DNA of 64,000 nt from an uncultured Mycoplasmatota bacterium (GTDB lineage: Bacteria; Bacillota_I; Bacilli_A; RF39; UBA660): NCBI GenBank assembly GCA_900547775.1, contig URHW01000003.1, forward strand, positions 3,874 through 67,873. The letters are read 5' to 3'. Below, piece after piece: positions 6,814-36,275 of this stretch (positions are counted from its first letter, which is position 1; each line of letters starts with the position of its first letter). The position numbers and the translations under genes were made by a program. The notes beneath the pieces are model-generated. The model was not told where the DNA came from, did no database searches, and was given only the letters and a program-made list of their open reading frames with translations.

Positions 6814-6842
6814 GTTAATTTTTCACTAAAAATATTCTATAT

Positions 6843-7187
6843 TTAATTTTTCATGAACAAGATAGTAATTGCAAGACCTACTCCTGCAATTATAACTGCA
6901 CTTATTATGGTGATTACTTTGACATATCCATTTGGGTTATTTAATTTTAAAACACGTACTTCGCCATTTTCTTTCATTTCAGCTTCTTTAGTAAGTGTTT
7001 CTTCTCTTGTTTTATTTACTTTGCCTTGATATGTACTTACAAAAGCAATATCTTCTGGATTAGTACTATTTTTAATTTCTTCTACGTATGCATCTAAAAC
7101 ATCTTGTTCTTCTCTTATAATTGTTCCATTAAGATATAATTCTAAGTAATGTTTCATTATTTGCTTAGTTTCTTCACTAAAGCTCAT
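6843..7187 (-). CDS. Hypothetical tail-anchored membrane protein (C-terminal TM helix)
   Basis: 114-aa ORF; acidic N-terminal domain and single C-terminal hydrophobic helix. Confidence 0.4.
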   Translation of the reverse strand: MSFSEETKQIMKHYLELYLNGTIIREEQDVLDAYVEEIKNSTNPEDIAFVSTYQGKVNKTREETLTKEAEMKENGEVRVLKLNNPNGYVKVITIISAVIIAGVGLAITILFMKN

Positions 7188-7196
7188 TTAAACCAC

Positions 7197-7733: not shown

Positions 7734-7765
7734 AAAATCTCTCCTTAAATATTATTATTACAAAA

Positions 7766-9523: not shown

Positions 9524-10232
9524 TTTCCGGAATAACTAGTTTCATGTTAACTTCTAGGGCTTCAAATGTATTATATTTTTTTAAGTCAGTTAAAGTTATT
9601 TTATATTTATCTAATATTCCTTCTAAGGTATCATTTTGCATTACTGTATGAACGTGATATTTAACATATGTTTCATCAGCATTAATACTACCAATAATAT
9701 TGTTTGTGCTTATTTCTGATTGTTTTTCTTCTTTAATTTCTTTTTTTGATTCTTCTTTTTCTTCTTTTTTAGAATCTTCTGCTGGTATATTTAAAATTTC
9801 TTCTTTGCTTACTTCTTTAAATCTTGGTTCATCTTCAGTTAAATCTACTACTTCAGCATCTGTTTTATTTAAAAATTCATTTAAATCTTTTTCATCAGCA
9901 AACTCGATCAAACTTTGTTCACCACTAACAATGTACTCTATGTGAACATGTAATTCATCATTGTTATTTAGCTCGTATGTAAAATCAGTTATTTCTAGGT
10001 TTACGGTGTCTAAATTAACATTACTTCTTATTTCATGAGTAAATGGTAACTTAAAACTGAAGTCTTCTTTATTAATACTTATTTCATGTAAACGATAATC
10101 TCCTGATATTATAAAGTCTCCTTCTAAGTTAGAACCATTAATATCCTCATCGTGTTCAACAGAGATACTTGTTATTTCAAATATACTATCTTTAAAGAGA
10201 AAATCTCTTTCTACTACAAAAGCCTCACTCAT
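9510..10232 (-). CDS. Acidic protein with C-terminal LysM domain
   Basis: C-terminal YHVHTVMQNDTLEGILDKYKITLTDLKKYN matches LysM pattern; overlaps upstream gene by 14 nt (translational coupling). Confidence 0.5.
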   Translation of the reverse strand: MSEAFVVERDFLFKDSIFEITSISVEHDEDINGSNLEGDFIISGDYRLHEISINKEDFSFKLPFTHEIRSNVNLDTVNLEITDFTYELNNNDELHVHIEYIVSGEQSLIEFADEKDLNEFLNKTDAEVVDLTEDEPRFKEVSKEEILNIPAEDSKKEEKEESKKEIKEEKQSEISTNNIIGSINADETYVKYHVHTVMQNDTLEGILDKYKITLTDLKKYNTFEALEVNMKLVIPENEEN

Positions 10233-13365: not shown

Positions 13366-15243
13366 TTATTTTACGATGTATGGATTTTCACTGGTACCAT
13401 TTCCGGTTACGTTGGTAGAGGGCTTAAGAGAAATTGAAGGACGAACTGCGCAAATGTTGTTCACGCTGTTGTTGAAGATGCTGCTAATGCCGCCGGAAAC
13501 GAACCAAGCGATAGCGAAGTCACCATTGAAGCCGATAGGAGACAAGGACCACCAATTATCACCAGTAGCATTTTCTTGTAAATATGTAGTTGTATTTTGT
13601 AATCCCAATGCATATCCTGCATATGCTAGTTCATCTGCTGTTATTAAGCCTACTTTTGAATTTATTTTATTTAGTTCTCCATTACATTTTAAACTAGGGC
13701 CCGTGCCACCAGCACCACCACTTGTACTTATTAATCTTTGTGTAGCACCATAATATGTTATATTTTTTGCATATCCTGAACCAGTAACATTCCTCCAACC
13801 CAAAGGATTATAAGTTTTATCTGTTACATTTGTTTTATCATTACACCATATTGTATCAGCTATTTTATCAGCATAATCTTTTAAATTATTTGTATACCAA
13901 GTTTCTAAATTAGTTAGTATTGTACTATTATTTGTATTTGCATGTGCACTTGGATATTCACTAGCACCAGCAGTACCATACTTAAATCCTACATATGCAT
14001 TATCATTATAGTTTGCATTAAATACACTTTTGTATGTTGTACCAGAGTATCTTGCAAATGCTGCACTAGCACTATTATTTGCAGAATCACAAGGATTAGC
14101 AACTCCTGCTGCATTATCATTATGTAAGATAAGTTTTATTGAACCATCTTCACTAATTCTTACTATTCTCCAGCATTTATTAGCAAATTGTACGTAATTA
14201 TTTTTTACTGCTCCTCTAAAATAATAACTTGTTCCATAATCATCTTCTGTACTCGCTAATAAGGCTTCGGTTTTATTTTTATTGGTACATAAGGGTTTAT
14301 ATGTGAAACTACTTGATGTAGCGCTTACTACATAATATACGCAATTTAAATTAGTTGTAGTCATCATTGTTCCAGCAGTACTTGAACCAAAACTGTATTG
14401 TTCTCCATGAGTTAAATATTTACCTACTAAGTCAGAATATGAATTAGCATATGTATCACTTGTTACTGCTATTCCTGTTAAATTAAATTTTGTACCATTT
14501 GCTTCCCAGCCTGTTCCATAGGTTATATAATATGCTTGATATTTTGATGATACACTTGTAGTTCGACTTTCGGCATCATCTAAAGTATGTGCACTCACTT
14601 CCTTTCCAGGTGTAGTTATTGGTGCATTTACTTCATTTTTTGCTAGTATAGTTTCTGAAAAAGTAGATGTAGTAGGTGCTTTATCACTTGTTATCTCTAC
14701 ATGAGCACTAAATGCTGCTCCTTGATTTGCGTTTTGGCTAGTTGCTTTCTTAGGATAATATATCTTTAATAGATATGTATGTTTTGCATTATTTGCTTTT
14801 ACAAAGTGTCCCTTACCTAATTCAATAGATGTACCCGTAATATCAGTTTTTGATATTGTTGGTATAACTTCTCCATTTGTACTTGTATTAGTACTTACTA
14901 GTTCATATTGTAATGGATCATCTGTTTTAAATGTGTTTGAGTCTACTACTAAAGTTAACTTATAGTACATTTCAGCATCTGTTGTATTATTACCAGTTAC
15001 TGTTATAGTTTTTGTAGCCCATACATCATCTTTAGGATATATTCCAGCTAGATCAATATTTGCTCCTCCATCATAAGTTATTTTCATTGTTCCGGCATCA
15101 GCTCTTACTGTAGTACTATTTTCAGAACTCATTCCAGCAGTAAAGAATGCATATGTTGCTCCAATAAAGATTATTGCAACAAGGATTCCAATATATAAAT
15201 ATATTTTTTTAAATTGTTTATCCATTTTACTATCTCCTATCAT
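13366..15243 (-). CDS. Family A protein A2: camelysin/TasA-like N-module (type II) plus conserved C-terminal domain with hypervariable block
   Basis: N-terminus YAFFTAGMSS…AGTMKITY resembles SipW-cognate signal and TasA/CalY start; first 185 aa homologous to ORF 46350-46907; C-terminal 300 aa paralogous to A1/A3. Confidence 0.7.
   Translation of the reverse strand: MIGDSKMDKQFKKIYLYIGILVAIIFIGATYAFFTAGMSSENSTTVRADAGTMKITYDGGANIDLAGIYPKDDVWATKTITVTGNNTTDAEMYYKLTLVVDSNTFKTDDPLQYELVSTNTSTNGEVIPTISKTDITGTSIELGKGHFVKANNAKHTYLLKIYYPKKATSQNANQGAAFSAHVEITSDKAPTTSTFSETILAKNEVNAPITTPGKEVSAHTLDDAESRTTSVSSKYQAYYITYGTGWEANGTKFNLTGIAVTSDTYANSYSDLVGKYLTHGEQYSFGSSTAGTMMTTTNLNCVYYVVSATSSSFTYKPLCTNKNKTEALLASTEDDYGTSYYFRGAVKNNYVQFANKCWRIVRISEDGSIKLILHNDNAAGVANPCDSANNSASAAFARYSGTTYKSVFNANYNDNAYVGFKYGTAGASEYPSAHANTNNSTILTNLETWYTNNLKDYADKIADTIWCNDKTNVTDKTYNPLGWRNVTGSGYAKNITYYGATQRLISTSGGAGGTGPSLKCNGELNKINSKVGLITADELAYAGYALGLQNTTTYLQENATGDNWWSLSPIGFNGDFAIAWFVSGGISSIFNNSVNNICAVRPSISLKPSTNVTGNGTSENPYIVK
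13447..13536 (-). other. Putative DGR variable region (VR) of A2
   Basis: Same 30-codon block as in A1/A3; contains AAC AAC AGC GTG AAC AAC; variation versus paralogs at codon positions 1-2 only. Confidence 0.6.
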
Positions 15244-19706: not shown

Positions 19707-20222
19707 CTAACTACCTGCTTGTTCATTTGTAGATGGTGTTGATGTACTGCATGTTGCACTTGCACAAGAACTAGTAATACCACCGCTTCCATTAGCAATA
19801 TTACTACTAGTATTTAGATCAGTGTATGTTGAACCTTTAGTACTGTAACTATTATCTGTTAATGTAACACGATAAGTAGCTTCTCTTTTATCGTCCAAAG
19901 AAACCGTAACATAGCCTTTAAAATTTCCAGATGAAGTAAGGCCTATACCGGCAAGTGTATAGCAATAACAATTATCGTTTATTTTTTTTCTGTTGTCATC
20001 ACTAGTATTTGTTGGTAATGTTCCAAGTAAGTCTTCTGATTGGAATGTACTTTCTGCATTACCTAAGGCTCTTTGAGCATAGATTTTAAATGAACCTTTT
20101 TTAGCGTTATTCATACTTTCTACTACGGCTGGAATTGCAATGATCATAATGATTGCTAAAACTACGATAACCGCTAGTAACTCAACTAATGTAAATCCTT
20201 TTTTATTACCTTTTATTTTCAT
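19707..20222 (-). CDS. Type IV pilin / pseudopilin-like protein (ComGC-like N-terminus)
   Basis: Prepilin class III signal KGFTLVELLAVIVVLAII with Gly-1, Phe+1, Glu+5; Cys/Ser/Thr-rich C-terminal tail. Confidence 0.7.
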   Translation of the reverse strand: MKIKGNKKGFTLVELLAVIVVLAIIMIIAIPAVVESMNNAKKGSFKIYAQRALGNAESTFQSEDLLGTLPTNTSDDNRKKINDNCYCYTLAGIGLTSSGNFKGYVTVSLDDKREATYRVTLTDNSYSTKGSTYTDLNTSSNIANGSGGITSSCASATCSTSTPSTNEQAGS

Positions 20223-20525: not shown

Positions 20526-20870
20526 TTAATCACCAAAGAATTTGTCCATTGCACGTGGAGTTTTAGGGGTTACTATATTAGTATTTGTAGTAGGTTTATT
20601 GGTAAGTTCTTGAATGACATTAATGGCTTTTTGAGCATTGTTAATGTATTTTTGAACGTTATCCATATTAATGTTTTTAACAAGACTTGCTAGTTCACTT
20701 AAAGGTGCTGCCCGATCTTCATCTTTAAACTTATTCCAGGCATTTTCATCTTCTCCATAAAGGTCGTATATTTCATATAAATCTTGCCAAGATGTTTCTT
20801 TATTTTTCACTTTAGTAACTAAGTATGGTTTGCTCCTTATAAATTCTCTGAAAGCATCTTTTTTATCCAT
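20526..20870 (-). CDS. Small hypothetical protein (possible YlbF/YmcA-like)
   Basis: 114 aa, size and helical character; weak. Confidence 0.3.
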   Translation of the reverse strand: MDKKDAFREFIRSKPYLVTKVKNKETSWQDLYEIYDLYGEDENAWNKFKDEDRAAPLSELASLVKNINMDNVQKYINNAQKAINVIQELTNKPTTNTNIVTPKTPRAMDKFFGD

Positions 20871-20915: not shown

Positions 20916-23423
20916 TTATAGTTTAAAGTCGTTTAAGAAGTCATCGATTGTGAGTTCTTGAATTTTTTCTTCTTCTTTTTTGATTTTAGGAAGTTCTATA
21001 TCTTCGTCTTTAATTATATCTAATTCTTGGGAAATGAAGACATCACTGATTGTTTGTTTTAAGATTACTGAACCAGTTGATTCTTTGTCCATGATTGGAA
21101 TATCACTATTTTTAACTAGATAAATGTCATCTTTAGATTTAATACCAATAATGTCTTTTGCGCTTGTACTAAAGGCTTTGATTATCTCATAGTTAGTTGA
21201 TTTAACTTTCTTTATTAGTGTTGTTCCTCTTTTAGCTCTGGATAACATATTTAACTCACTTAGTTTAACTCTTTTAGCAGTTTTTTGGTTAGTAAATATG
21301 TCGATGTATTCGTCTTTTTCACTATAACAGATACCACTTATAACATTATCATCTTTTAAGTTAATTCCTTTAACACCAGCGGCTTTAGGTCCACTTAATG
21401 GAATTTCGCTTGCCATATAGTTTAGATAGTAACCTGTTTTAGTAACGATAAGAACGTTAGGTTTAGTAATACAAACATTTACTACTTCATCAGTGTCTTT
21501 TAGTTTCATTGCTGTATAGGCTTTAGAGTATCTACTTACAATAAAATCATTAAGGTTTGTTCTTTTTACCATACCCTCACGAGTAAACATGGTAACTTCT
21601 GGATTAGTGACATTTTCACTTATGATGAAGGCATTAACTGCTTTATCATCTGGACTTATTGTTACAAAGTTACTAATATGCTTACCTAGGTCTTTCCATT
21701 TACATGATGGGATTTCATGAATTGGTAAGTATAGGTAGTTGCCACGTGATGTAAAGATACATAATTTATTTAAGGTGTTTGTTTGTTTGTAACAAATTAC
21801 ATAATCTCCTGGTTTTAAAGCGGTTTCACCATCTGCAGAGTTATGTGATTTAATAGGTACTCTCTTTAAATATCCGTCATTAGTTAGAACGATGATGACG
21901 TCTTCTTTTGTTATAAGATCTGTTTGATCTATTTTAATTTCTTTTATTGTTTCACTGATTTCTGTTTTTCTTGGAACACCATACTCTTTTTTCATCCTTC
22001 TAAGTTCATCTTTGATAACGCCTTTAAGTTTGGATTCGTCATTTAGAATACCAGTAAGTTCTTCAATTATTTTTCTTAAGTTTTCAAGTTTTTCATTTAG
22101 AACAGTGATATCTGTATTAGTTAGTCTATATAGTTGTAACATAACAATTGCTGTAGCTTGTTCTGTTGTAAAATCAAACTTTTTAACTAAATTCTCAATA
22201 GCATCTGGTTTATTTTTGCTTGCTCTAATAACGGCGATTACTTCGTCTAGTATGCTGATTGCTTTAACTAAACCTTCTGTAATATGCATTTCTTTTCTAG
22301 CAAATGCTAAATCAAAATTGGTTCTTTTTAAAATAACATCTTTTTGATGATCGATATAAGCATCAATAATCGGAATGATGCCAAGTAATCTTGGTCTTCT
22401 TTTATCAATACATACCATGTTGTAGTTATATGTTGTTTGAAGTTCAGTGTTTTTAAGTAAGTAATTTAAGACAAGTTCTTTATCAGCACCAGGCTTTAAA
22501 TCAATAACTATTCTAATATTAGAATCTTTATCTGATTCGTCACGAACTTCAGCAATACCATCTAGTTTCTTTTCAAAGCGTATGTCATCTATTTTTTTAA
22601 CAAGTAGCGCTTTATTTACTTCAAAGGGAATCTCTGAAATAACAATTTGATCTTTACCTTTATTCTTTTGAAATTCACTTTTGCTAGTTACAATAAGTTT
22701 TCCACGACCTGTTTTAAAAGCACTTTTAATACCATCTAATCCTTCAACAATACCACCAGTTGGAAAATCTGGGCCTTTAATTATTTCATAGATAGAGTCT
22801 TCATGACAATTAGGACTATCTATTCTCTTAATAACCGCATCACATACCTCAATTAAATTATGAGGTGGGATGTTTGTTGCATATCCGGCAGAAATTCCGT
22901 TAGTACCATTAACTAGTAGGTTAGGAAATTTTGCTGGCAATACTGTTGGCTCTAGTAAGGTATCTGAATAGTTAGGTGCCATCATAACGGTATCTTTATC
23001 AATATCTTTAAGTAATTCTTCACTTATTTTAGATAGTCTGCACTCTGTATAACGATATGCAGCAGGACCATCACCATCAATTGAACCATTGTTACCATCT
23101 ACTTCAACTAAGATATGGTTTTGTTTCCAACTTTGACTCATACGAATTAAAGCATCGTATACACTTGAGTCGCCATGTGGGTGGTATTTACCTAGTACAT
23201 TACCTACAGCGTTCGCACATTTTTTAAACTGTTTATCATAGGTGTTTTTATCTCTATACATTGCATAAATAATTCTTCTTTGAACTGGTTTAAGTCCGTC
23301 TCTTACATCTGGTATGGCTCTATCTTGAATAATATATTTAGAATAACGAGCAAATCTTTCACCCATTATTTCTTCTAAACTATAATCGTGAATTCTCTTT
23401 AATACTTCTTCCACTCTTATCAC
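20916..23423 (-). CDS. parC: Type IIA topoisomerase subunit A (ParC/GyrA family; ParC favoured)
   Basis: N-terminal RFARYSKYIIQDRAIPDVRDGLKPVQRRIIYAM; active-site region; no GyrA-box seen; no B subunit adjacent. Confidence 0.75.
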   Translation of the reverse strand: MIRVEEVLKRIHDYSLEEIMGERFARYSKYIIQDRAIPDVRDGLKPVQRRIIYAMYRDKNTYDKQFKKCANAVGNVLGKYHPHGDSSVYDALIRMSQSWKQNHILVEVDGNNGSIDGDGPAAYRYTECRLSKISEELLKDIDKDTVMMAPNYSDTLLEPTVLPAKFPNLLVNGTNGISAGYATNIPPHNLIEVCDAVIKRIDSPNCHEDSIYEIIKGPDFPTGGIVEGLDGIKSAFKTGRGKLIVTSKSEFQKNKGKDQIVISEIPFEVNKALLVKKIDDIRFEKKLDGIAEVRDESDKDSNIRIVIDLKPGADKELVLNYLLKNTELQTTYNYNMVCIDKRRPRLLGIIPIIDAYIDHQKDVILKRTNFDLAFARKEMHITEGLVKAISILDEVIAVIRASKNKPDAIENLVKKFDFTTEQATAIVMLQLYRLTNTDITVLNEKLENLRKIIEELTGILNDESKLKGVIKDELRRMKKEYGVPRKTEISETIKEIKIDQTDLITKEDVIIVLTNDGYLKRVPIKSHNSADGETALKPGDYVICYKQTNTLNKLCIFTSRGNYLYLPIHEIPSCKWKDLGKHISNFVTISPDDKAVNAFIISENVTNPEVTMFTREGMVKRTNLNDFIVSRYSKAYTAMKLKDTDEVVNVCITKPNVLIVTKTGYYLNYMASEIPLSGPKAAGVKGINLKDDNVISGICYSEKDEYIDIFTNQKTAKRVKLSELNMLSRAKRGTTLIKKVKSTNYEIIKAFSTSAKDIIGIKSKDDIYLVKNSDIPIMDKESTGSVILKQTISDVFISQELDIIKDEDIELPKIKKEEEKIQELTIDDFLNDFKL

Positions 23424-23485
23424 CTTTAAGAATTATAACATAGAAAGCCCATCTTTTCCAAGACAAAAGCCAAAAAAAGAAGAAA

Positions 23486-26400
23486 CTAATTGAATTTCTT
23501 CTTTAAAATAGCTAGTAATATAAGTCCTAAAGCGCTAGTGCCCATTAGACTATATTCTAATAGATAACTATCACCTTCAATTCCAGTGTATGGAATATCT
23601 GGTTCTCCGTTAGTATCATCTCCACCTTCACCCATAACGAATTGGTATACATAGGTTACAACGATATCTTCTTTAGTATATTTACCTTTTACTTCGCCAA
23701 TAGTATTGATTAGTTCATAATCAGTGATAGTAGCTGGACTAGTTTGATAATCTGTACCAACTTGTCCATTAGTAGTAGTTTCTTCTAAAAGTACTTTACC
23801 ATCTTCATCAACATATTTAGTAATAACTTTACCCATATCTTTCTTGTAGTAGTAAATTACTTCAGTTACTTCATCAGTAAACATTCCACTAGCATTTTCT
23901 GGAGTACTTACTAAAATGTATCCATAAACATCTGCTTCTTTAGTAGTATAGTCTTTACTTACTTTACCATTAATAGTTTCATCTTCAGCAATTTTAATTG
24001 TAGTACCTTCTTCATAATGGTGAACAATTACTTTAGCATCCTTTAGAGAATAGATAAATGTAATTGTATTATCACTACTTTTTAATTTAATAGTTTGCTC
24101 TGTAGCACTTTCTAAATTATAGTTAGCAAATACTTTATTATCAGTTTCATCTTTAGCATAAGCAGTATAATTATCATTAATTCTACCAGTATCTTTAACT
24201 GGGTTAATTAAATCTATTACATTACCATCTTTGATTGTTACATATCTTACAGTAACATCAGTCTTCTTTAATTGATAGTAGAAAGTTGCTTCTTGCTTTT
24301 CACTTGTTAAAGTTCCACTTGTTGTACCTTTACTTTCTACATATTCATAGTCACCTAATTCTTCTGTTTTAGGACTAAATGAGAAAGATGTACCAATTTT
24401 ACCATTAACAACGTCATCTTTGAATAATTCTGTTGTTGTTTTATTACCATTATTATCAATGATATAGTGATGAGCTACGGCTCCAGCACTTTCAGCCTTT
24501 TCATAGTAGAAAGTATATTCTTTAGTAGTTAAATCAAATGTTGCGTTTTGAGTCTTGCTACCAACTACAACATAGTCTTTAATATCTTTAGCATTAATTA
24601 CTTTTGTTTCAGTTACTTTACCATCAAAAGTATCATCATCTACTAATTTTGTATTAGTATCTTTTTCTACATAATGAACAATAATCTTAGAATCTTTAAG
24701 TTCATAATAGAAATTGATAACATTTCCTTCTTTAGCAAGGGTAATAGTTTCTTGATTATTACTTACTAAATTATAATTATTTAAAGTTAAAGCGTATTCT
24801 GTAACCTTATCCCCAATATATAAGTCTCCATTATTAGCGTTCTTAGAAATTGTTTTACTATCAGCTACTTTTTTATTAGAGCCTTTTTCTAAGTAGTTAA
24901 CAGTGTATTCTGCTGTAACACCCTTTACTGTGATAGTAACAGTTGAAACTTCTGACTTTGCATAAGTTTTATTTCCTTCTTTATCTGTGATTGTAGTTTT
25001 AATATAATATGTGAAATTATCATCACCACGGAAATTGTTATTTGGATTATATTTAAGTGATCCATCTTGATTAAGTTCTAGTGAACCATATTTTGTATTG
25101 TTAACGATTACAATTTCATCTAGTACACTTTTAGCTTCAGCTTCTTGTTTTCCTTTGTAATCATTAGATTTAATACCATCATTAGCATCTACTACTAATT
25201 CTTCATTAGTATTTGTTTCATAATTATCGTCCATAGTTCTTGGTGCAATAGGTGCAACAGGGTTGATTAGGTTTTCATTAATCTTACCATCAACATTTTC
25301 ATAGAACTTATTACCATCAGCAGCGGTACCAGTAACAGTAGCACCATTATTAGTGTACATACTACCATAATAATTTTCATTTGCTGTTACAGTAAATTCT
25401 AATTCTTCTGGTTTTTTAGAAGATAATTCATTAAATTTATAGATAATTATTGTTTGATCTTTTTCTTCAACAATTTCTACGGCATCGTCATATTTTTCTT
25501 TTAAAGCAACTTTATCAACAGTGAATGTACTTGGAACAACGTCTCTAATAGTTAAGTCTTTAGCAACAACTTCTATATCTTTTGATACAGCAGCAAATGC
25601 TTCGTTTAATTTAGCACTATCATTTGCATCAAAGTATCTGCCACCATTTTTAACAATTGATTGTAAAAATTTTTCAGCATCACTATCAGCACCTACTCCA
25701 AAGCCAATTGAGTATATTTTACCAGTAAATGATTCTGCTTCTTCTTTTGCAGCCTCACTAGGTTTTTTCATGTAACCAGCATCACATGCTCCTACAATTT
25801 CATATCCTTCATACCAGTCAAGATATTTAGAATAATATCCTCTCGCCTCACATTTATAAGTTGTGCCATCAACTCTATCTTCATATGTGGCATATCCATC
25901 CCTAACATAATTTCCATTTAGTTCATATCTGTCTGATGTTGATGTAAAACCTATAGTACTTAGACTCTCATGTTCATCTGTTTTTCCTGTACCATGAGTA
26001 TGTTGCACTCCATCTTTAACTGTTGTAAAGAACGTTGGAAGTCCATCTGAAAGAACAATTAAGTCTTTTTCATTCTTTTTGTCAGTAAACAATTTCTTTG
26101 CTTCTCTGATACCTTCTTGAACGTTAGTTCCACCATCTGCTGCTTCTTCACTGTTTAAGCAAGCATCTAACTTTGCAGCATCATCTGAAAGTGCACATGT
26201 TTTAGTTACGTTAGTATCATACCAAACTACGCCAATCTTGATTTTTCCCTTATTTTCTTCTACTAGTAGGCTATCGATGAAGGCATCAGTAGCATCTTTT
26301 AGTGTGTCTAGTTTAGATTTACTAGCATTTACTAAATAATCTTTCATACTTCCTGATGAGTCTAGAACAAGTACTATTTCTCTATCGCTTTGTTCTGTTA

Positions 26401-26605
26401 TGGTGTATGGATTACCACTTACAGTTATTTTAACTTTAGCACTTCTACTAGTTTCATCACCGATACGTTCTGCAGTTTTAGTAGCAGTAACTTTACCAGC
26501 GTTTGGATTAGTATCAGCAAATACAACAAAAGTATTACCAAATACAGAAGTAATTGTTATAACTAATGCCATAAGTAACTGACCTAAATTTTTCAATTTT
26601 TTCAT
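23486..26605 (-). CDS. Cell-wall anchored adhesin: signal peptide, vWA domain, about five MucBP-like repeats, C-terminal sorting signal IPYTG
   Basis: MIDAS motif VLVLDSSGSM; repeated V-x-V-x-Y-V-x-x-D-G…TFYY modules; C-terminus IPYTG plus hydrophobic stretch plus KKKFN. Confidence 0.75.
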   Translation of the reverse strand: MKKLKNLGQLLMALVITITSVFGNTFVVFADTNPNAGKVTATKTAERIGDETSRSAKVKITVSGNPYTITEQSDREIVLVLDSSGSMKDYLVNASKSKLDTLKDATDAFIDSLLVEENKGKIKIGVVWYDTNVTKTCALSDDAAKLDACLNSEEAADGGTNVQEGIREAKKLFTDKKNEKDLIVLSDGLPTFFTTVKDGVQHTHGTGKTDEHESLSTIGFTSTSDRYELNGNYVRDGYATYEDRVDGTTYKCEARGYYSKYLDWYEGYEIVGACDAGYMKKPSEAAKEEAESFTGKIYSIGFGVGADSDAEKFLQSIVKNGGRYFDANDSAKLNEAFAAVSKDIEVVAKDLTIRDVVPSTFTVDKVALKEKYDDAVEIVEEKDQTIIIYKFNELSSKKPEELEFTVTANENYYGSMYTNNGATVTGTAADGNKFYENVDGKINENLINPVAPIAPRTMDDNYETNTNEELVVDANDGIKSNDYKGKQEAEAKSVLDEIVIVNNTKYGSLELNQDGSLKYNPNNNFRGDDNFTYYIKTTITDKEGNKTYAKSEVSTVTITVKGVTAEYTVNYLEKGSNKKVADSKTISKNANNGDLYIGDKVTEYALTLNNYNLVSNNQETITLAKEGNVINFYYELKDSKIIVHYVEKDTNTKLVDDDTFDGKVTETKVINAKDIKDYVVVGSKTQNATFDLTTKEYTFYYEKAESAGAVAHHYIIDNNGNKTTTELFKDDVVNGKIGTSFSFSPKTEELGDYEYVESKGTTSGTLTSEKQEATFYYQLKKTDVTVRYVTIKDGNVIDLINPVKDTGRINDNYTAYAKDETDNKVFANYNLESATEQTIKLKSSDNTITFIYSLKDAKVIVHHYEEGTTIKIAEDETINGKVSKDYTTKEADVYGYILVSTPENASGMFTDEVTEVIYYYKKDMGKVITKYVDEDGKVLLEETTTNGQVGTDYQTSPATITDYELINTIGEVKGKYTKEDIVVTYVYQFVMGEGGDDTNGEPDIPYTGIEGDSYLLEYSLMGTSALGLILLAILKKKFN

Positions 26606-26640
26606 AACCTTTTCCCTCCTAAATCTATATTAAACAATCT

Positions 26641-27348
26641 TTAAAGATTGATTAATTTCCTACTACTAACAATAAGATAATCTCTTGTTCCATCAAGCAA
26701 ACACGTTTGAAGGATTAAAATATCATCAGATTCGGTAACCTTAACATCTGAATTATATAAAGCATTTTCTCTAATTTTATTTATGTGACCTAAAAAGTCA
26801 TTTGTCTTAAGGGTCATATGTTCATCATCTTTTGTTCTTTTGACGGAAAAGATTTGATAAGTACTAACACCATTTTCATTTTCCAAATAAATTAAGTCAT
26901 TATTTTTTGTAAAATCAGGGTCTAAATACATTCTAAGATTTTTAAAAGCGACATCATACTTATTTGAGTTATGACCATATATGTTTATTTGTTTGTCTTC
27001 AAAAGTATTTCGGTAATCCATGAATACGGCACCAATTCGGCTTTTTTCTTTTTTTAGTGTGTGGTTTAGATAATAAGTGTTATTAGTTGTTTTAACAAAT
27101 AACGTATTAATATCGGCACCCGGCACGCTTATAGAGCCAGCAATATCCTCATTACCATATTCTTGTTTGAAATTGTAATACTTTTCCTTTAAATTTGTTT
27201 CTTTGTCTTCTTTATCTTCCTTGATAACGCCTTCAAGAGCGACAATTTTTAATTTTTCATCATTGTGATGACGAATAATTATAAGACCTAAAGAGGACAT
27301 AAAAACAATTAGACAAAGGCTAAATAAAACATAATACCATTTTTTCAT
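26641..27348 (-). CDS. Sortase (class B-like)
   Basis: N-terminal TM, IYGHN His region, ILQTC catalytic Cys (TLxTC), downstream Arg; 235 aa. Confidence 0.75.
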   Translation of the reverse strand: MKKWYYVLFSLCLIVFMSSLGLIIIRHHNDEKLKIVALEGVIKEDKEDKETNLKEKYYNFKQEYGNEDIAGSISVPGADINTLFVKTTNNTYYLNHTLKKEKSRIGAVFMDYRNTFEDKQINIYGHNSNKYDVAFKNLRMYLDPDFTKNNDLIYLENENGVSTYQIFSVKRTKDDEHMTLKTNDFLGHINKIRENALYNSDVKVTESDDILILQTCLLDGTRDYLIVSSRKLINL

Positions 27349-27542
27349 ATTTACCCCCTAAAATAATATATGAATAAATAACCCAATTAGTATAATCTTA
27401 CCTTTTTAAGGCAAAATCTCCCAAAATTGTTTTACAAGTACTATATACTAAAGGAGAAAATAGATTCTGTCAATATTTAAAATTGCAAATTTTAAAATTT
27501 TGGATAAAAAAAGAGGAACTAGTAAAAAAGTTCTCTTTGAGT

Positions 27543-27568
27543 AAAAAAAAGACTGATAATAATCAGCC
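27543..27568 (-). terminator. Rho-independent terminator after thioredoxin-like gene
   Basis: Short GC-containing hairpin (CTGAT/ATCAG) immediately after stop followed by T8 on minus strand. Confidence 0.45.
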
Positions 27569-28261
27569 TTATTTTAGTTTTGCATAATAATCCTTAAAGA
27601 TATTAGATAATTCTTCTTTTTCAGAATCATTCATCTCTAAGTAAGGATTACCATCTACTCTTTTACTATAAGATTCTAAAGTTTCTTCTAAACCTAGAAC
27701 TTTACCATCTTTAACAAAAATTACTGTAGGTAAATAGATTCTCTTAATAGAGTCATCTTTAAGACCATCATAAACAGGCAAGTAATCTTTTAAAATATCT
27801 ACTAATTTTAAGTAATCTTCAGTGCCTTTCTTTTCAGTCTTAATTTTACCCTTTTTAGTTAGTGATAGTGTATTACGATCACCTGAAATATTTAAATAAT
27901 ATATTGGACTAACTTTTTCTTCTAAAGCAGAGTCAACAAGTACTGGTACTAAATTACGGCACCATGGGCACTCTGGAAAACCTAAATAGATTACTCCAGT
28001 ACCTTTATCTAAAATATCAAAGATTTCCTCATAATTAGAATAACTAATTGGATTATAACTCTTAATATCAATGCTTAGATAATTTTTACCATTACCATTA
28101 TCTTTACCATTTAAGCTTTCATACTCTTCTTTAAATTTTAAAGAATCGTTAGTTATTGTGTAACTCGGTCCATCATCCTTCTTAGAGAACATAAAATATC
28201 CCATAATAACAAGAATAATAACAACAATTACGCCTGTAATTACTTTAGCCTTTTTGTTCAT
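27569..28261 (-). CDS. Membrane-anchored thioredoxin-fold thiol-disulfide oxidoreductase
   Basis: N-terminal TM; CPWC active-site motif in thioredoxin-like context. Confidence 0.6.
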   Translation of the reverse strand: MNKKAKVITGVIVVIILVIMGYFMFSKKDDGPSYTITNDSLKFKEEYESLNGKDNGNGKNYLSIDIKSYNPISYSNYEEIFDILDKGTGVIYLGFPECPWCRNLVPVLVDSALEEKVSPIYYLNISGDRNTLSLTKKGKIKTEKKGTEDYLKLVDILKDYLPVYDGLKDDSIKRIYLPTVIFVKDGKVLGLEETLESYSKRVDGNPYLEMNDSEKEELSNIFKDYYAKLK

Positions 28262-28273
28262 AGAAACCTCAGG

Positions 28274-29143
28274 TTATTTAATTTGATTCATAACTTCTTC
28301 AGCAAAGTTGTCGCTTCTATGTTCCATACCTTCGCCTACTTCATAACGAACCATTTTTAAAACTTCTCCACCATTATTTTTAACGTAAGTTTTAACATCA
28401 ATGTCACCATCTTTAATGAATGGTTCATCTAATAAACAAATTTCTTTGAAGAATTTTTTAAGTCTACCTTCAACCATTTTAGCAGCGATATCAGCAGGCT
28501 TTCCTTCATTAATAGCTTGTTCAGTAAATACTTTTCTTTCTCTTTCAATACGCTCTGCATCAATATCTTCTTCTTTTAAGTATTCTGGTCTCATTGCAGC
28601 AGCTTGCATAGCAACGTCTTTAGCAACATCACTATTTGCTCCCTCTAATAGTGTTAATACAGCAATCTTACCGCCCATATGTAAGTAAGCGCCAAAATTT
28701 TGAGTATCAGTTTTTTCAACAACTTCTAATCTTCTTAAAGATAACTTTTCACCAATTTTACTTGTTTTAGCAACGATTAAATCAGCAATAGTTCCTTCAC
28801 TTGATGGAAGAAGTAGAGTTTCTTCTAGAGTCTTAGCATCTGATTTTAAAACTGCTTCACCAATTTCTTTAATCATATCAGTAAATTCAGCATTCTTACT
28901 AACAAAGTCAGTTTCAGAGTTAACCTCTAAAATTACAGCCTTATTATCTGATGTAAAGATATTAGCTAGACCTTCAGCAGCAATTCTGCTTTCTTTTTTA
29001 GCAGCTTTAGCAATACCTTTTTCTCTTAAGTAATCAATAGCTTTTTCTAAATCACCATTAGACTCAGTTAAAGCCTTTTTGCAGTCCATCATACCTGCAC
29101 CAGTTTTGCTTCTTAATTCAGCAACGCTTTTAGCATCAATCAT
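28274..29143 (-). CDS. tsf: Elongation factor Ts
   Basis: EF-Ts N-terminal UBA-like motif ELRSKTGAGMMDCKKAL; length 289. Confidence 0.9.
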   Translation of the reverse strand: MIDAKSVAELRSKTGAGMMDCKKALTESNGDLEKAIDYLREKGIAKAAKKESRIAAEGLANIFTSDNKAVILEVNSETDFVSKNAEFTDMIKEIGEAVLKSDAKTLEETLLLPSSEGTIADLIVAKTSKIGEKLSLRRLEVVEKTDTQNFGAYLHMGGKIAVLTLLEGANSDVAKDVAMQAAAMRPEYLKEEDIDAERIERERKVFTEQAINEGKPADIAAKMVEGRLKKFFKEICLLDEPFIKDGDIDVKTYVKNNGGEVLKMVRYEVGEGMEHRSDNFAEEVMNQIK

Positions 29144-29158
29144 ATTTATCCTCCTAAA

Positions 29159-30091
29159 CTATTTTAATGCTTGTAATAATTCTTCTTTTTTCATTGAAGA
29201 GTATCCTTTAACGCCTTTTTTCTTAGCAACTTGTTTAAGTTCAGCTAAAGTTTTTAGTGTTAAATCTTCATCTTCAGTAGTTTTTTCTTCCTTTATAGCT
29301 TCTTTAGTTTTTTCATCTTCTAAGCTTTCAACGAAAACTTCTTTTACAGTTTTAGTTTGTTTTTCACTTTTTTTAGATTTGTCATCTTCTGTAACGTAGT
29401 CAACCATTTCTAATCCACGTGCTTCACAAATAGCATTGTTAAGTACACCTAAAACGACTTTAACACTTCTTACAGCATCGTCATTACCTGGAATTACGAA
29501 ATCAACATCATCTGGATCACAGTTAGTATCAACTAAACCGAATACAGGAATGTTTAATTTACGTGCTTCATGAATAGCGTTAATTTCCTTCTTAGGATCA
29601 ACGATAATTAAAGCATCTGGTAATTTTTCCATGTTACGAATACCACATAAAACTTTATTTAGTTTATCATATTCTTTCTTTAATCCGATAACTTCTTTTT
29701 TAGGTAAAACTTCGAATAATCCGTCTGCTTCCATCTTTTCGATTTCTTCTAAACGTTTAATTCTCTTTCTGATAGTTCTGAAGTTAGTTAATGTTCCACC
29801 TAACCATCTTTCGATTACATAGTAAGAATTACTTCTTAAAGCTTCTTCTTTAGCAGCTTCATTTGCTTGCTTTTTAGTTCCAACAAATAAGAAATTTCCT
29901 CCGTTTTCTGCAATCTTTTTAATTTCTGCGTAAGCACTTTCAATGCATGATGCAGTCTTTTCAAGGTCGATAATATAAATATCATCTCTTGATGTAAAGA
30001 TGTATTCCTTCATTTTAGGATTCCATCTTTTTGTTTGATGTCCGAAATGAACACCTGCTTCTAATAAATAACTCATAGAAACAACAGCCAT
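29159..30091 (-). CDS. rpsB: 30S ribosomal protein S2 with about 65-aa C-terminal extension
   Basis: [27 protein letters not shown] nearly identical to B. subtilis S2 N-terminus; extension ends with Rho_N-like motif [33 protein letters not shown]. Confidence 0.9.
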
Positions 30092-30892: not shown

Positions 30893-32014
30893 CTACTTAT
30901 TAGGTTTGCCTCTTTTACCGCCGATGTCATCAGGACTAATTCCTTTAACTTTGCGGTAGTATGCGATAAGTTGAGATATGGTTACACTAGCAAGCATTCT
31001 AAATAGATTTCCTAATGTTTGATAATCTCTATCATTTATACATTTTAAATAAATACTTTTCATTGATGATGTAATGATTACGGGTGCTAAATGATTATGT
31101 AGTAAATGGGCGTTTGTAATTATTCTGCCAGTTCTTCCATTACCATCTTCGAATGGGTGAATTCTTTCAAATTCGATATGGAATTTGGCTTCTCTTTCAT
31201 AGAAAGCTCTTAGGTATGCTTCTTTTGCATTTTCTTTTTCTTCTGCAGTATTAAAGTCCATATCAAAGTCAAATGCAGGTATGTCTAGGGCCCATTCAGT
31301 GTTATATTTATGAACTAATTCTTGCATTTTGATTGGAACTAGTTCTTTTGAACATGGCTTAAATTCAGCACCGAAGATACAGTTATCGACTTTTTTATAG
31401 CCTTCACTAATTCCTTCATTATAATTAACCATACTATCTATTCTAATAATATCTTTTACTGTAATGTCATCAAGAACTAATGCATAATCGAATGCTGCTA
31501 AAAAGCCTTTTTTAGTTGATTTTGCTTTCATGTCAGCAGTACTCATGTTGGTTACTAATTGACATAATTCTCGGGTTTTATCAATTAAAGTTTCTTCTTC
31601 GTATGGCATGCCGACAAGTTTTCCTTCACTTCTTGCTTTTTCTAGTTCGACATTGTTTCTAAATGGTCTTACTGCTCCTTTAATGAAGGTTGTATAATCA
31701 TTGATACATGGTGAATAGAGATTTAAGGTTTCATCAATTAGAAAACCTTTTTCAGGAACACCTAGGTATTTTAAATAGTCTAAAACGTTTTTTACTCTTT
31801 CTGCGTATAAACCAGGAGAAGTCTTAGCTAAAAAACTAGCGTAATAAACATTTTCTGGTGAAATGAATTTTTTAAGTTCGAATTCAGCATCGTTTTTGGC
31901 TTTAAAGGCTTCTTCTAAGGCTGAACTAGTATAGGCAAATGCTTCACCAAAGAGAGTTTTCATATATGTATTAAAAAAATTATCATTAAACTCAAAGTCC
32001 TCTATTTTTTTCAT
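30893..32014 (-). CDS. Fic/DOC family protein
   Basis: Fic motif HPFEDGNGRTGR; start placed at MKKIEDFEF (GAAGGGG RBS) rather than track start at 32077. Confidence 0.75.
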   Translation of the reverse strand: MKKIEDFEFNDNFFNTYMKTLFGEAFAYTSSALEEAFKAKNDAEFELKKFISPENVYYASFLAKTSPGLYAERVKNVLDYLKYLGVPEKGFLIDETLNLYSPCINDYTTFIKGAVRPFRNNVELEKARSEGKLVGMPYEEETLIDKTRELCQLVTNMSTADMKAKSTKKGFLAAFDYALVLDDITVKDIIRIDSMVNYNEGISEGYKKVDNCIFGAEFKPCSKELVPIKMQELVHKYNTEWALDIPAFDFDMDFNTAEEKENAKEAYLRAFYEREAKFHIEFERIHPFEDGNGRTGRIITNAHLLHNHLAPVIITSSMKSIYLKCINDRDYQTLGNLFRMLASVTISQLIAYYRKVKGISPDDIGGKRGKPNK

Positions 32015-32094
32015 AAATATCCCCTTCTTTTGACTGATTATCTTAGCAGAAAAACATATGTTTGTCAAGAAAGGCAAAATAAAAAGCCCGAAGG

Positions 32095-34228: not shown

Positions 34229-34813
34229 CTATTTTACTGAAAAACCTTTCTTTAGTTCGTTTATAATATTTTCTTTTAAGGTAATACTTAGTGTGATAAG
34301 TAAGAATAAAGCAACTACCCCCATTACAGTTAGAGGCCAGCTATCTTTTTCATGATAAAATGATAGACCTATGATAGAACTAAAAATAGATAATAATATT
34401 AAGAATAAGAAGGGAAAAATGTTTTGTTTTTGTCTTTCTATATCAGTAAAAAATAATACTGATGTTACTATAAGACCACTAAAGATTAAAATTGGTACTG
34501 CCTCTAAAGCCCAACCTGGTGCTAAGAAAACATCTATGGTTATAAGAAGTAAACTGGTTAAAGTAATAAGTTTAACAAACTGACTTATTCTGTTATATTC
34601 AACTAAGTCTCTAGATATAACTAAATCCCATAACATATAAATTGACATTAAGACAACTAAACTCCAAGCTTTACCGCCAATAATTAGATTAATAATTGGA
34701 CAAATTACTACTGCAATAAGTAGTGGCCACTTCATAAAATTTATTAATCTTTGATGTTTGATTATTTTAGGAGATACTTTAGGATATGTTATTTTAATTT
34801 TCATATAAACCAC
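34229..34813 (-). CDS. Hypothetical polytopic membrane protein
   Basis: Multiple TM helices, 194 aa. Confidence 0.35.
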   Translation of the reverse strand: MVYMKIKITYPKVSPKIIKHQRLINFMKWPLLIAVVICPIINLIIGGKAWSLVVLMSIYMLWDLVISRDLVEYNRISQFVKLITLTSLLLITIDVFLAPGWALEAVPILIFSGLIVTSVLFFTDIERQKQNIFPFLFLILLSIFSSIIGLSFYHEKDSWPLTVMGVVALFLLITLSITLKENIINELKKGFSVK

Positions 34814-36275
34814 TTCCTTCTACAGTTACATTTATATTATTATTTTCTAATAATTCGTAAAGTTTTTCTTCAAAGGTAGGATCAACTGTCATTTTACTAA
34901 TTGAAAATGTTGTTATGTTATTTACAGTTACTACTGAGCAGCCAGCTCTATTAGTAATGCCTATTCCTAAAATAAAGTCCATACTTTCAATTTTACTTGA
35001 AAGTTCTTCTGGTAGTTTTATTACGCCTAAATTAGATAATGTATTAGAAAATATCTTGTCGCCAAGAAAACCATAAACTATTTTAGCTATAGGGGCTTTA
35101 ATTAATAGAGGTATATATTTAAGCATACTAGTCATTTTCTTTGTTGATGTAACCATTTTAGTCATCTCTTCTTTTGATGCTTTCACATCTAATTGTTTAG
35201 TTATTTTGTCAATTATATCTTCTATATTTGTTATTTTATCTATTTCTAATCTAATACCACAATACATTGAGAAGTTACGAAGAGTTTTTGTTGGATAGTA
35301 TTTACGCATATTTACTGGAACTTGGATACTTATATCACCATTTAGTTTATCAGTTGCACTTTTTTCAGCAATAAACATTAGAGCAAGTAAGTATGAGGTT
35401 ATTGTTGTATTATATTTTTGGGAGGCTTCTTTTAATTTATTAGTATCCATTTTAAAATGAATTATTTTACATGGTCTAACTTTAGATAGTTTGCCATCCA
35501 TCTGCACAGCCATTTTATCTATGAAGCCTGAGGTGCTAAGAGCGTTTGGTACGTTTTTAAAAGCATTTTCATATTCTTCTTTTGAAGGCTCATCATTTAT
35601 ATTAAGTACTAGGTCACTTTTAGGTATACTCTCTCCAAGAAGTTTTAGGTATTCTGCTGTTAGTGATGTTAAGAATGCTATGCCTCCAGTTCCATCAGTA
35701 AGAACATGAAAGAACTCAATACTAATTCTATTTTGATAGTATTTTACTCTAAAGGATTGAGATCCACTTACTGATACTTTAATTGGCTGAGATGGAATAT
35801 CGCACTCTTCTTCTACTTTAAATCTTCTTTTGGTGGTATCTAAATAATGCCAGAAGAAACCCTTTTTTAAAGTAGTTGCAAATGTAGGAAATCTTTTAAT
35901 AGTAAAGTTTAGGGCCATTTGTAAGATTTCTGGTACTATATTTTCTTTTAAATAAACGGATAATCTAAAGATAGCCATTCTATCATGAGCCATTGATAAT
36001 GGATATATTTTAGCAGCATCATCTAAAGGGAACCACAATACAGGAGGTCTTGCGTAAAAGCCACCTAAGTTTTTTGTATCTAAATAAGATAACGTCTTTT
36101 TTAAATCGGTATCTTTTTTATGGTAATAAATAATTGCTTTTTCAAAGTCATCTCTAAGTTTTTCTTTATTCTTTTTATTTAATAAACAGTGCTCATCAAA
36201 TGAAGTAAAAAAATCTTTTAATAGTGTTTGTTCTTCTTTGGTAAGTGTTTTTATATATTCATTAAATTCTTCCAT
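34794..36275 (-). CDS. HxxxDG-motif acyltransferase (condensation/WS-DGAT/PapA5-like superfamily)
   Basis: FHVLTDGTGG matches HHxxxDG catalytic motif; 493 aa; overlaps downstream membrane gene by 20 nt. Confidence 0.5.
   Translation of the reverse strand: MEEFNEYIKTLTKEEQTLLKDFFTSFDEHCLLNKKNKEKLRDDFEKAIIYYHKKDTDLKKTLSYLDTKNLGGFYARPPVLWFPLDDAAKIYPLSMAHDRMAIFRLSVYLKENIVPEILQMALNFTIKRFPTFATTLKKGFFWHYLDTTKRRFKVEEECDIPSQPIKVSVSGSQSFRVKYYQNRISIEFFHVLTDGTGGIAFLTSLTAEYLKLLGESIPKSDLVLNINDEPSKEEYENAFKNVPNALSTSGFIDKMAVQMDGKLSKVRPCKIIHFKMDTNKLKEASQKYNTTITSYLLALMFIAEKSATDKLNGDISIQVPVNMRKYYPTKTLRNFSMYCGIRLEIDKITNIEDIIDKITKQLDVKASKEEMTKMVTSTKKMTSMLKYIPLLIKAPIAKIVYGFLGDKIFSNTLSNLGVIKLPEELSSKIESMDFILGIGITNRAGCSVVTVNNITTFSISKMTVDPTFEEKLYELLENNNINVTVEGSGLYEN

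Follow-up and report, generated by a model that had tools for sequence, protein, structure and literature searches.

A 64-kb stretch of contig URHW01000003.1, from an uncultured bacterium of the RF39 lineage, was analysed wholly in silico; it is referred to here as the window, and all positions are given in its coordinates. Three open reading frames (ORFs), all on the minus strand, fill positions 23486-28261 and encode a thioredoxin-like (Trx-like) protein, a sortase and a large adhesin (Table 1), with the limits exactly as given in a first-pass annotation of the same DNA. In transcriptional order the genes are rpsB (29159-30091), tsf (28274-29143), the Trx-like gene, the sortase gene, the adhesin gene and parC (20916-23423). 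The sortase had been described as directly downstream of the adhesin, but it lies upstream of it, with a gap of 35 bp. The Trx-like gene is upstream of the sortase, but it is not directly upstream of the adhesin as had been proposed, and it is parted from the sortase by a gap of 220 bp that contains a terminator-like hairpin and a promoter-like site; the gap between tsf and the Trx-like gene is of 12 bp. Judged from its sequence, the hairpin would end an rpsB-tsf-Trx transcription unit. The sortase substrates of Clostridioides difficile are under the control of a cyclic di-GMP (c-di-GMP) riboswitch, whereas a search of 23000-29500 against Rfam gave no match at E<=1 to this or any other element. 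The organization that is regarded here as probable is a surface-display module of two genes that has a promoter-like site of its own, composed of an adhesin ending in an IPYTG signal and of a class B-type sortase with an LQTC signature that lacks the catalytic Arg, and to which the Trx-like gene is not dedicated.

The sortase scores 43.7 bits with the Pfam model Sortase PF04203 (cutoff 26.6), and its best match among the NCBIfam models is TIGR03064. The solved structures matched by sequence are all of the SrtB class (15 of 15). The AlphaFold2 (AF2) model, with a mean predicted local distance difference test (pLDDT) of 91.1 and a predicted template-modelling score (pTM) of 0.83, contains the β-barrel, the SrtB-specific N-terminal helix and the helix-bearing β6/β7 loop. 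The top 19 Foldseek matches of this model are all class B, with E-values from 1.4e-17 to 3.6e-13, and those of classes C and A come next with E-values of at least 6e-9, so that more than four orders of magnitude lie between the two sets. The catalytic Cys is placed in a TLxTC-type motif (C216, ILQTC) and the His (H126) follows β4, as expected for class B. In a neighbour-joining tree the LQTC clade, named after this signature, is separate from five canonical SrtBs. The class B-like assignment made in the first-pass annotation is therefore upheld: by sequence and predicted fold the enzyme is a class B sortase, with the exception of the Arg of the active site.

In a 14-member alignment of the family, His126 and Cys216 are invariant and there is no conserved Arg after the Cys. 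The catalytic Arg residues R217 of C. difficile SrtB (Cd-SrtB) and R243 of Bacillus anthracis SrtB (Ba-SrtB) align to Tyr224 of the window sortase by three methods (the hmmsearch profile applied to PDB chains, hmmalign and MAFFT L-INS-i), and PDB 6kyd, which is the R217A mutant of Cd-SrtB, shows Ala in this same column. In the AF2 model, β7 ends at Cys216 and β8 comprises residues 224-231, with Tyr224 at its start. The spacing between the Cys and the Arg position at the start of β8 is of eight residues in both the window sortase and Cd-SrtB, where Arg217 is 'anchored at the beginning of β8' (PMC5118464). Given that the three alignment methods and the strand register of the model agree, Tyr224 is placed in the Arg position.

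The same replacement is found throughout the clade. An exhaustive hidden Markov model search over 1.84 billion cluster representatives retrieved 16,523 sortase-like proteins, and the clade counts refer to the best 150 of them, which are representatives of clusters at 50% identity and score at least 169 bits each; the canonical SrtBs of solved structure score 81-136 bits with the same profile. The LQTC clade comprises at least 150 such clusters. The Arg column of these best 150 representatives contains Tyr (82), Phe (34), Leu (22), Lys (4) or other residues (8), and in no case Arg. Cys216 and Gln214 are each present in 148/150 and Thr215 in 143/150, and Gln214 is the only column conserved at 90% or more in the clade that differs from canonical SrtBs. 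For the 91 sortase ORFs from related loci of other genomes or contigs that were compared with the window (labelled L001, L007 and so on), hmmalign places in this column Tyr in 49, Leu in 30, Phe in seven, Val in two, and Lys, Ile and Arg in one each. The sole Arg belongs to one of two canonical second sortases ('TLSTC…RIV'), found in L034 and L027; that of L027 is mis-registered by one residue in hmmalign, giving the single Ile, and MAFFT restores its Arg. These two enzymes (L034 13634-14455, minus strand; L027 13293-14264, plus strand; TLSTC…RIV[I/V]QAK) are encoded within 10 kb of an LQTC sortase and adjoin small proteins that end in NPxT[S/K/A]D-type signals, and can be used as internal controls because they stand beside NPxTx-type substrates. 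The sequences suggest that two separate sortase/signal systems, one canonical and one of the LQTC type, coexist in these genomes.

Table 1. Coordinates of the features of the sortase-adhesin locus in the window (aa, amino acids).
Feature	Position	Strand	Remarks
Class B-type sortase, 'LQTC' clade, 235 aa	26641..27348	-	N-terminal membrane anchor (predicted helix, residues 3-37); motif ILILQTC
Catalytic His126 (YGHN)	26971..26973	-	Invariant in 91/91 locus sortases; 149/150 representatives
His177, β6/β7 loop	26818..26820	-	At the position of Cd-SrtB Tyr167 / Ba-SrtB Tyr191, substrate P4 contact
Gln214-Thr215-Cys216 ('LQTC' signature)	26701..26709	-	Cys216, catalytic nucleophile; Thr215, Thr before the Cys; Gln214 replaces the Ser of TLSTC
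Tyr224, first residue of β8	26677..26679	-	At the canonical catalytic Arg position (Cd-SrtB R217, Ba-SrtB R243)
Fibrillar adhesin, predicted cell-wall-sorted, 1039 aa	23486..26605	-	Signal peptide, N-terminal Ig-like strands, VWA with β-rich insertion, Big_9/cadherin-like domain, six MucBP, sorting signal
VWA domain, about residues 77-345	25571..26377	-	MIDAS, β-rich insertion and four positionally conserved Cys (137, 149, 252, 274)
Big_9/cadherin-like Ig domain, residues 454-547	24965..25246	-	Pfam PF17963, 34.5 bits (cutoff 23.6)
Six tandem MucBP repeats (stalk), residues 567-988	23642..24907	-	Pfam MucBP, 131 bits
Sorting signal IPYTG (residues 1004-1008) + IEGDSYLLEYSLMGTSALGLILLAIL + KKKFN	23489..23596	-	Same signal type adjoins clade sortases in relatives
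Promoter-like site TTGACA-17-TAGTAT	27445..27473	-	In the 220-bp gap upstream of the sortase; 10/12 matches, consensus match only
Terminator-like hairpin and T-run	27549..27570	-	Immediately after the Trx-like stop codon; 9-bp stem, T8 tail
Putative membrane-anchored thioredoxin-fold protein (CPWC), PedC/BrcD-like, 230 aa	27569..28261	-	Neighbour, rpsB-tsf unit

The Arg is one of three residues that hold the P4 residue of the sorting signal in canonical SrtB. In Ba-SrtB, the P4 Asn of NPKTG is bound by the guanidinium of Arg243, by Tyr191 in the β6/β7 loop and by Ser231, which is the Ser of TLSTC, and each of the single mutants Y191A/F, S231A and R243A is inactive (PMC11987632); the role of the loop Tyr is described in PMC5118464 as well as in PMC11987632. 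With the correspondence of residues counted along the 1rz2 sequence, Tyr191 is changed to His177 in the window sortase (His in 110/150 and Tyr in 37/150), Ser231 to Gln214, and Arg243 to Tyr224 (Tyr, Phe or Leu in the clade). The Asn-binding triad is therefore wholly replaced, and Cd-SrtB has the canonical residues at these places, as Tyr167, Ser207 and Arg217. By contrast, Leu106 of Ba-SrtB, which contacts the P3 Pro (PMC11987632), is kept as Leu94 (141/150, and invariant in the 14- and 44-sequence alignments), and Thr232 is kept as Thr215; the Pro contact, the Thr before the Cys, the His and the Cys are shared with the SrtB enzymes of B. anthracis and Staphylococcus aureus. The fact that Tyr, Ser and Arg are all replaced while Cys, His, Thr and the Leu that contacts Pro are kept suggests that the clade retains the chemistry and the Pro pocket and has remodelled the P4 site as a whole. 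Cd-SrtB accepts Ser or Pro at P4 and yet keeps its Arg, which means that a change of P4 residue does not by itself need the loss of the Arg.

The sorting signals encoded next to these sortases are in line with an altered P4 site. As noted in the first-pass annotation, the sortase is paired with a neighbouring adhesin whose signal is xPxTG and not LPXTG. This pairing is kept in relatives down to about 35% identity, and about 80 species of uncultured gut Bacilli share both the pair and an xPxTG[I/V] signal. Sortases 83%, 71%, 65% and 52% identical to that of the window are each encoded directly upstream of a VWA/MucBP or MucBP protein that ends in IPYTG (L001, L003 and L005) or KPYTG (L007). Across the genome loci 34 distinct sortase/signal pairs were found, mostly less than 200 bp apart. 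The neighbouring signals include IPYTG, KPYTG, VPETG, VPNTG, FPKTG, PPKTG, IPDTG, APNTG and others, with a few that have no Pro (xVQTGV, IINTGV, EVPTGA); in nearly all cases a GEGG/GTGGDD spacer precedes the signal and the last residues are KKKFN or RKRFN. The substrates of the clade keep the P3 Pro, the P1 Thr and the P1' Gly, and have Ile, Val, Phe, Lys, Ala, Pro or Thr at P4 and never Asn; P2' is strongly Ile or Val. A scan of metagenome DNA for IPYTGI[D/E] gave three real sorting signals among the 120 stretches listed; all three belong to orthologs of the window adhesin or of a 609-aa MucBP protein, and among the matches listed two of the three have an LQTC sortase alongside.

Two observations on the substrates of relatives are recorded here. 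In L014, L017 and L023 the substrates, of about 614 aa and encoded 10-13 bp away from an LQTC sortase, have the Pro-less ending H[A/T]VQTGV; the similar NVQTG of C. difficile CbpA is not cleaved by Cd-SrtB in vitro (PMC4371152). In L001, whose sortase is the 83% identical relative, two tandem and near-identical MucBP proteins of about 610 aa (4057-5898 and 6005-7834) are encoded between the Trx-like gene and the sortase. They have identical N- and C-termini, both end in IPYTG, and they are absent from the window; judged from their sequences, a sortase substrate seems to have been duplicated in tandem recently.

Recognition of xPxTG by a class B sortase is already known, given that C. difficile SrtB recognises [S/P]PxTG (PMC4155245, PMC5118464). 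This enzyme (substrates CD2831 and CD3246; PDB 4ux7 and 5gyj) belongs to one of the two groups of solved structures closest by sequence to the window sortase, and the two share the class B fold and an xPxTG signal in place of LPXTG or NPxTN. They differ in the P4 residue, which is Ser or Pro in the C. difficile substrates and Ile, Val, Phe or Lys in those of the clade. The SrtB-IsdC systems of B. anthracis and S. aureus (NPKTG/NPQTN) are likewise similar in the class B fold and in a sortase gene that adjoins its own dedicated substrate, but this substrate is a NEAT haem-binding protein, while in the window it is a large VWA-MucBP adhesin.

On the basis of these sequences and of the model, it is tentatively proposed, with somewhat less than even confidence, that the LQTC sortases are a natural, active and Arg-independent type, with Gln-based positioning of the substrate in a P4 pocket formed by His, Gln and an aromatic residue, and with the specificity [I/V/F/K]-P-x-T-G-[I/V]. 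Several points weigh against the overall interpretation of the pair. The score with TIGR03064, of 111.5 bits, is under the equivalog cutoff of 153.75. Arg-to-Ala mutants are inactive in every sortase tested and the Arg was called indispensable 'for any sortase activity' in a 2026 paper (PMC13257024), and for this reason an enzyme without it might be slow or do something else. There is no clean covariation between P4 and sortase position 224 in the 34 pairs, which are sparse and confounded by phylogeny: Phe224 is paired with a P4 Ala in two cases, and Tyr224 and Leu224 both occur with Ile, Val and Phe. The role given to Gln214 is drawn from strand geometry only. Lys is found at position 223 in about 40/150 representatives, and in one alignment (MAFFT) a few 'GKLL' members put this Lys into the Arg column. 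Given that the window covers only 64 kb of the source genome, other sortases or substrates may occur elsewhere in it. Finally, the window sortase has an Arg222, two residues before Tyr224, which is kept in relatives of at least 65% identity and could reach the active site.

If Arg222, in the β7/β8 loop, took the role of the catalytic Arg, the enzyme would be mechanistically ordinary. This residue is found in the window and in all relatives of at least 65% identity in the motif 'G[TS]RDYLI', and the length of the loop between Cys and Arg does vary among canonical SrtBs, with spacings of 8 to 11. However, β8 begins at residue 224 and not 222 in the AF2 model, and the three alignment methods set the canonical Arg on Tyr224. 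In the wider clade position 222 is Asn, Gly, Asp or Lys, with Arg in only 4/150, and any Arg within 12 residues after the Cys is found in only 27/129 representatives. Furthermore, the 52% identical enzyme of L007 ('KDGGNYLII') has no Arg there and still lies beside MucBP substrates ending in KPYTG. A shifted Arg is therefore considered unlikely.

A second possibility is that the protein, lacking the Arg, works as a release protease or hydrolyses slowly, or that it is a pseudo-enzyme limited to binding of the sorting signal. The loss of activity in Arg-to-Ala mutants of SrtA and SrtB enzymes (PMC13257024; PMC11987632) speaks for it, and PDB 6kyd is a mutant of this kind. It is nonetheless held to be very unlikely, given that Cys, His and the Thr before the Cys are nearly invariant over at least 150 diverged clusters, that selection on the gene is strong and that intact cognate signals stand beside it in dozens of species. 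Moreover, the oxyanion hole has been assigned to the Thr before the Cys and to backbone amides, and the authors argue that the Arg positions the substrate (PMC11987632). Between the window sortase and four strain variants there are 13 synonymous differences and no non-synonymous ones, and the ratio of non-synonymous to synonymous substitution rates (dN/dS) against relatives is 0.07-0.25, which means that the gene is under purifying selection. The window also encodes two class B penicillin-binding proteins and a DD-carboxypeptidase; on this gene content the genome makes peptidoglycan. Because of the purifying selection, the intact neighbouring signals and the peptidoglycan genes, the enzyme is probably still a working sortase.

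The one-genome-per-species scan gave 80 loci, and nearly all are from metagenome-assembled genomes (MAGs) of uncultured gut 'Bacilli/Tenericutes/Mollicutes' (CAG:1000, CAG:628, UMGS, and Hadza, rabbit and ruminant bins), so that in nearly all loci the clade is restricted to uncultured gut Bacilli of the RF39-like type. The exact protein sequence of the window sortase is listed in 1,846 blocks of a public collection, and the longest contigs that carry it exceed 1 Mb. Bacteria of RF39 are predicted to have m-DAP-type peptidoglycan (m-DAP, meso-diaminopimelic acid) and to retain srtA/B sortases (PMC10868615). Among the members of the clade, P0297 (936 aa) is a fusion of two sortase-domain stretches with Peptidase_M23, a peptidoglycan endopeptidase domain, and several representatives (e.g., P0188, P0204, P0233, P0240 and P0301) carry N-terminal extensions of 80-180 aa.

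The partner of the sortase is, on its sequence, a wall-anchored fibrillar adhesin, with a signal peptide, an adhesive domain, stalk repeats and a sorting motif followed by a hydrophobic segment and a basic tail. Its N-terminus, MKKLKNLGQLLMALVITITSVFGNTFVVFA, is a signal peptide. The VWA domain announced in the first-pass annotation from the motif DSSGS is matched by Pfam VWA_2 at residues 77-188 with 60.9 bits (cutoff 27, E=2.2e-16), and its metal ion-dependent adhesion site (MIDAS) is complete (D82/S84/S86 within DSSGS, residues 82-86, with T160 and D189). The AF2 model of residues 32-453, which was run on a shallow alignment of 15 sequences and has a pLDDT of 82.6, shows a VWA fold with a long β-rich insertion; a homology search with the VWA region found at least 19 matches. 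The best Foldseek matches of this model among solved structures are SpaC (9.4e-19), Mfa5, PitA (5.8e-16), GBS104 and RrgA, so that structure prediction also supports the VWA assignment and shows the head set among Ig-like domains in the style of tip adhesins. All VWA orthologs have Cys at the positions of 137/149 and 252/274, which suggests that the head has two disulfides.

In place of the five or so MucBP-like repeats first counted, a jackhmmer self-search found six, at residues 567-635, 640-702, 710-778, 783-853, 858-921 and 926-988 (six domains, E 1e-20 to 3e-30). The C-terminus agrees with the earlier description, with 31 residues after IPYTG that include a hydrophobic segment and end in KKKFN. 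A stalk of tandem MucBP repeats followed by a sorting signal is also found in the mucus-binding proteins of Lactobacillus and in InlJ of Listeria (PDB 7yl4), and the window adhesin has matches to NCBIfam internalin_J (partial) and to 7yl4/2kt7; those adhesins, however, have LPXTG and a class A sortase, whereas that of the window has a VWA head, IPYTG and a class B sortase of the LQTC type.

The first-pass annotation had also proposed that the protein may act as a pilus-tip-like adhesin. The PI-2 and FCT pili of streptococci are VWA-tipped pili assembled by class B-type sortases, which recognise xPxTG-like signals, and a module in which the sortase polymerises a pilus with the VWA protein at its tip can be conceived in the same way. 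Spy0129 and SrtG1 of this type retain the β8 Arg. The active site of Spy0129 is the usual Cys221/His126 (PMC11231552). The fold resemblance to tip pilins in this proposal stands: the VWA head with MIDAS, β-rich insertion and Ig-like strands is as in SpaC, RrgA, GBS104 and PitA, to which the N-terminal region is structurally closest. In addition, the pilus-type class B sortases 3psq and 4y4q are among the fold matches of the sortase, one or two extra MucBP substrates of 600 aa lie beside the sortase in L001, L003 and L009, and EVPTG-like signals occur in a few relatives (L050). The pilus itself, on the other hand, is most improbable. A search for further proteins with a C-terminal sorting signal, run across the 64-kb window, found the adhesin only, which leaves no shaft pilin in the window, and the extra substrates of relatives match only MucBP in Pfam and not the pilin-type CnaB. 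Neither the window nor the related loci showed a class C sortase, and the genes called around the pair include no SipA/LepA-like gene. Finally, unlike the pilus tip adhesins, the window adhesin already carries in the same polypeptide its own stalk of seven domains, with the MucBP repeats.

The Trx-like protein was likewise correctly described as having a CPWC motif and an N-terminal hydrophobic anchor, and CPWC is kept in the seven homologs found in loci (7/7). It resembles the PedC/BrcD oxidoreductases (TIGR01295, PF20207; PDB 1zma) in the CxxC, the putative thioredoxin fold and the predicted N-terminal membrane anchor, but the matches are weak: TIGR01295 gives 37.7 bits, far under its cutoff of 120, the only match to a solved structure is a marginal one to 1zma (E=0.3), and there is no Pfam match for the window protein, while its homologs carry PF20207 as faint matches in the context tables. 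Also unlike PedC/BrcD, it has no bacteriocin genes nearby, so that a bacteriocin-operon context is not found, and its position directly after rpsB-tsf is conserved, being seen in the window, L001, L007, L089, L090 and L092.

The first-pass annotation had grouped the three genes as a dedicated secretion, folding and anchoring module, in which the CPWC protein would be the foldase for the disulfides of the adhesin. The two positionally conserved Cys pairs of the VWA head are compatible with this, as are the membrane anchor of the Trx-like protein with its CPWC domain predicted outside, and the order Trx-sortase-substrate in three sublineages (window/L001/L009, L007/L016/L037 and L092). Nonetheless, the rpsB-tsf-Trx block occurs without any sortase in L089 and L090, where the next gene encodes a ComGA-like T2SSE ATPase, and in L003 and L005 the sortase-adhesin pairs are at another place in the genome and have no Trx gene; in L003, L005, L011 and L012, VWA orthologs that share the four Cys also stand beside the sortase with no Trx gene. 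A Trx homolog lies within 10 kb in only 3/80 genome loci. The short gap to tsf notwithstanding, the hairpin and the promoter-like site part the Trx-like gene from the sortase, and another plausible client exists in a four-Cys pseudopilin. A three-gene module is therefore quite improbable. Because the Trx block occurs without a sortase, the pairs occur without Trx and the two transcription signals intervene, the functional unit is, as far as these sequences indicate, one of two genes, sortase and adhesin, with the Trx-like gene outside it. The Trx-like protein appears to be a housekeeping-type extracytoplasmic oxidoreductase of the rpsB-tsf unit. Oxidation of the two conserved Cys pairs in the VWA head may be one of its functions, but not one to which it is dedicated.

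The pseudopilin just mentioned is encoded at 19707-20222 on the minus strand; it is a type IV pilin/pseudopilin-like protein of 171 aa with an N_methyl motif and four Cys (…CYCY… and …SCASATCS…). T2SSE genes are present in L007, L089, L090 and L092, with the ComGA-like ATPase adjoining the rpsB-tsf-Trx block. In Bacillus subtilis, BdbDC serves ComGC, and by analogy the Trx-like oxidoreductase may serve this pseudopilin. In L090, a Mollicutes-labelled MAG without the sortase cassette, an IS605 OrfB/TnpB-like gene (9276-9950) and a serine recombinase lie just past rpsB-tsf-Trx, and the region past this block may be a hotspot of insertion and loss.

For the two-gene module, the following mechanism is proposed. 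The adhesin would be exported by the Sec pathway, and its hydrophobic segment and KKKFN tail at the C-terminus would keep it in the membrane. The membrane-anchored sortase would then cleave IPYTG between Thr and Gly using Cys216 and His126, and transfer the adhesin to peptidoglycan, probably to an m-DAP-type stem peptide. Cd-SrtB transfers its substrates to m-DAP (PMC4371152), and C. difficile thereby anchors adhesins to peptidoglycan of this type (PMC4371152, PMC5118464); for the window sortase this target is only proposed. Given that Gln214 is on β7, two residues before Cys216, it should face the side of Cys216, where its carboxamide could give the substrate-positioning hydrogen bonds that normally come from the Arg. 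The hydrophobic or aromatic residue 224 would line the pocket for a non-polar P4 residue, and a conserved pocket Arg, Arg113 (DYRN), may contribute; its counterpart Arg102 is listed in the binding pocket of Cd-SrtB (PMC5118464). The product would be a self-contained fibrillar adhesin, in which one Ig-like and six MucBP domains form the stalk of a VWA head that is metal-dependent (MIDAS).

With regard to the remainder of the window, its G+C content is about 30%, and nearly all genes are on the minus strand (50/52 ORFs of at least 150 aa). GC skew is negative throughout, with a cumulative value that falls monotonically across 1-64000, and the whole window lies on one replichore with an extreme gene-strand bias. 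A YlbD_coat homolog (69 bits) is encoded at 20526-20870 (minus strand), and a Coat_F gene is found in the relative L003 (16034-16357); such spore-coat-related genes in a genome of roughly 1.1 Mb bear on the question of sporulation in this lineage. A Fic/DOC-domain protein is encoded two genes upstream of rpsB (30893-32077, minus strand) and is found at the same place in L001 and L093-L096, as two ORFs in L094. Five ORFs of 290-625 aa (5135-6760, 8651-9523, 13366-15243, 34794-36275 and 42483-43682, all on the minus strand) lack significant matches in Pfam, and the ORF at 60421-62229 has a marginal match to DUF6273 only, a DUF6273 protein being also found near the sortase in L005.

There is nothing unusual in a sortase paired with a dedicated substrate, and VWA heads and MucBP stalks are familiar parts of adhesins. 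What appears to be new is a large clade of sortases without the catalytic Arg, which was overlooked in the first-pass annotation. No earlier description of 'LQTC', Arg-less or RF39 sortases was found in the literature, with subscription journals mostly outside the scope of the search, and this is weak evidence of absence that can only be suggestive. A conserved His-Cys-Arg active site is attributed to all sortase classes in a 2024 review and again in the 2026 paper (PMC13257024), and a selectively maintained clade without Arg, in very prevalent bacteria of the human and animal gut, contradicts this universality. Recent work debates two roles for the Arg, stabilisation of the oxyanion or no more than positioning of the substrate. 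The fact that exactly the three P4-binding residues of Ba-SrtB are replaced here makes the question directly testable with a few mutants. If the LQTC sortases are active and Arg-independent, they would be direct natural evidence on what the Arg of sortases does, and the enzyme and its signal would be an orthogonal pair for sortase-mediated protein ligation. For the not-yet-cultured RF39-like organisms, the VWA/MucBP substrates of these enzymes are candidate gut-colonisation factors of bacteria with reduced genomes.

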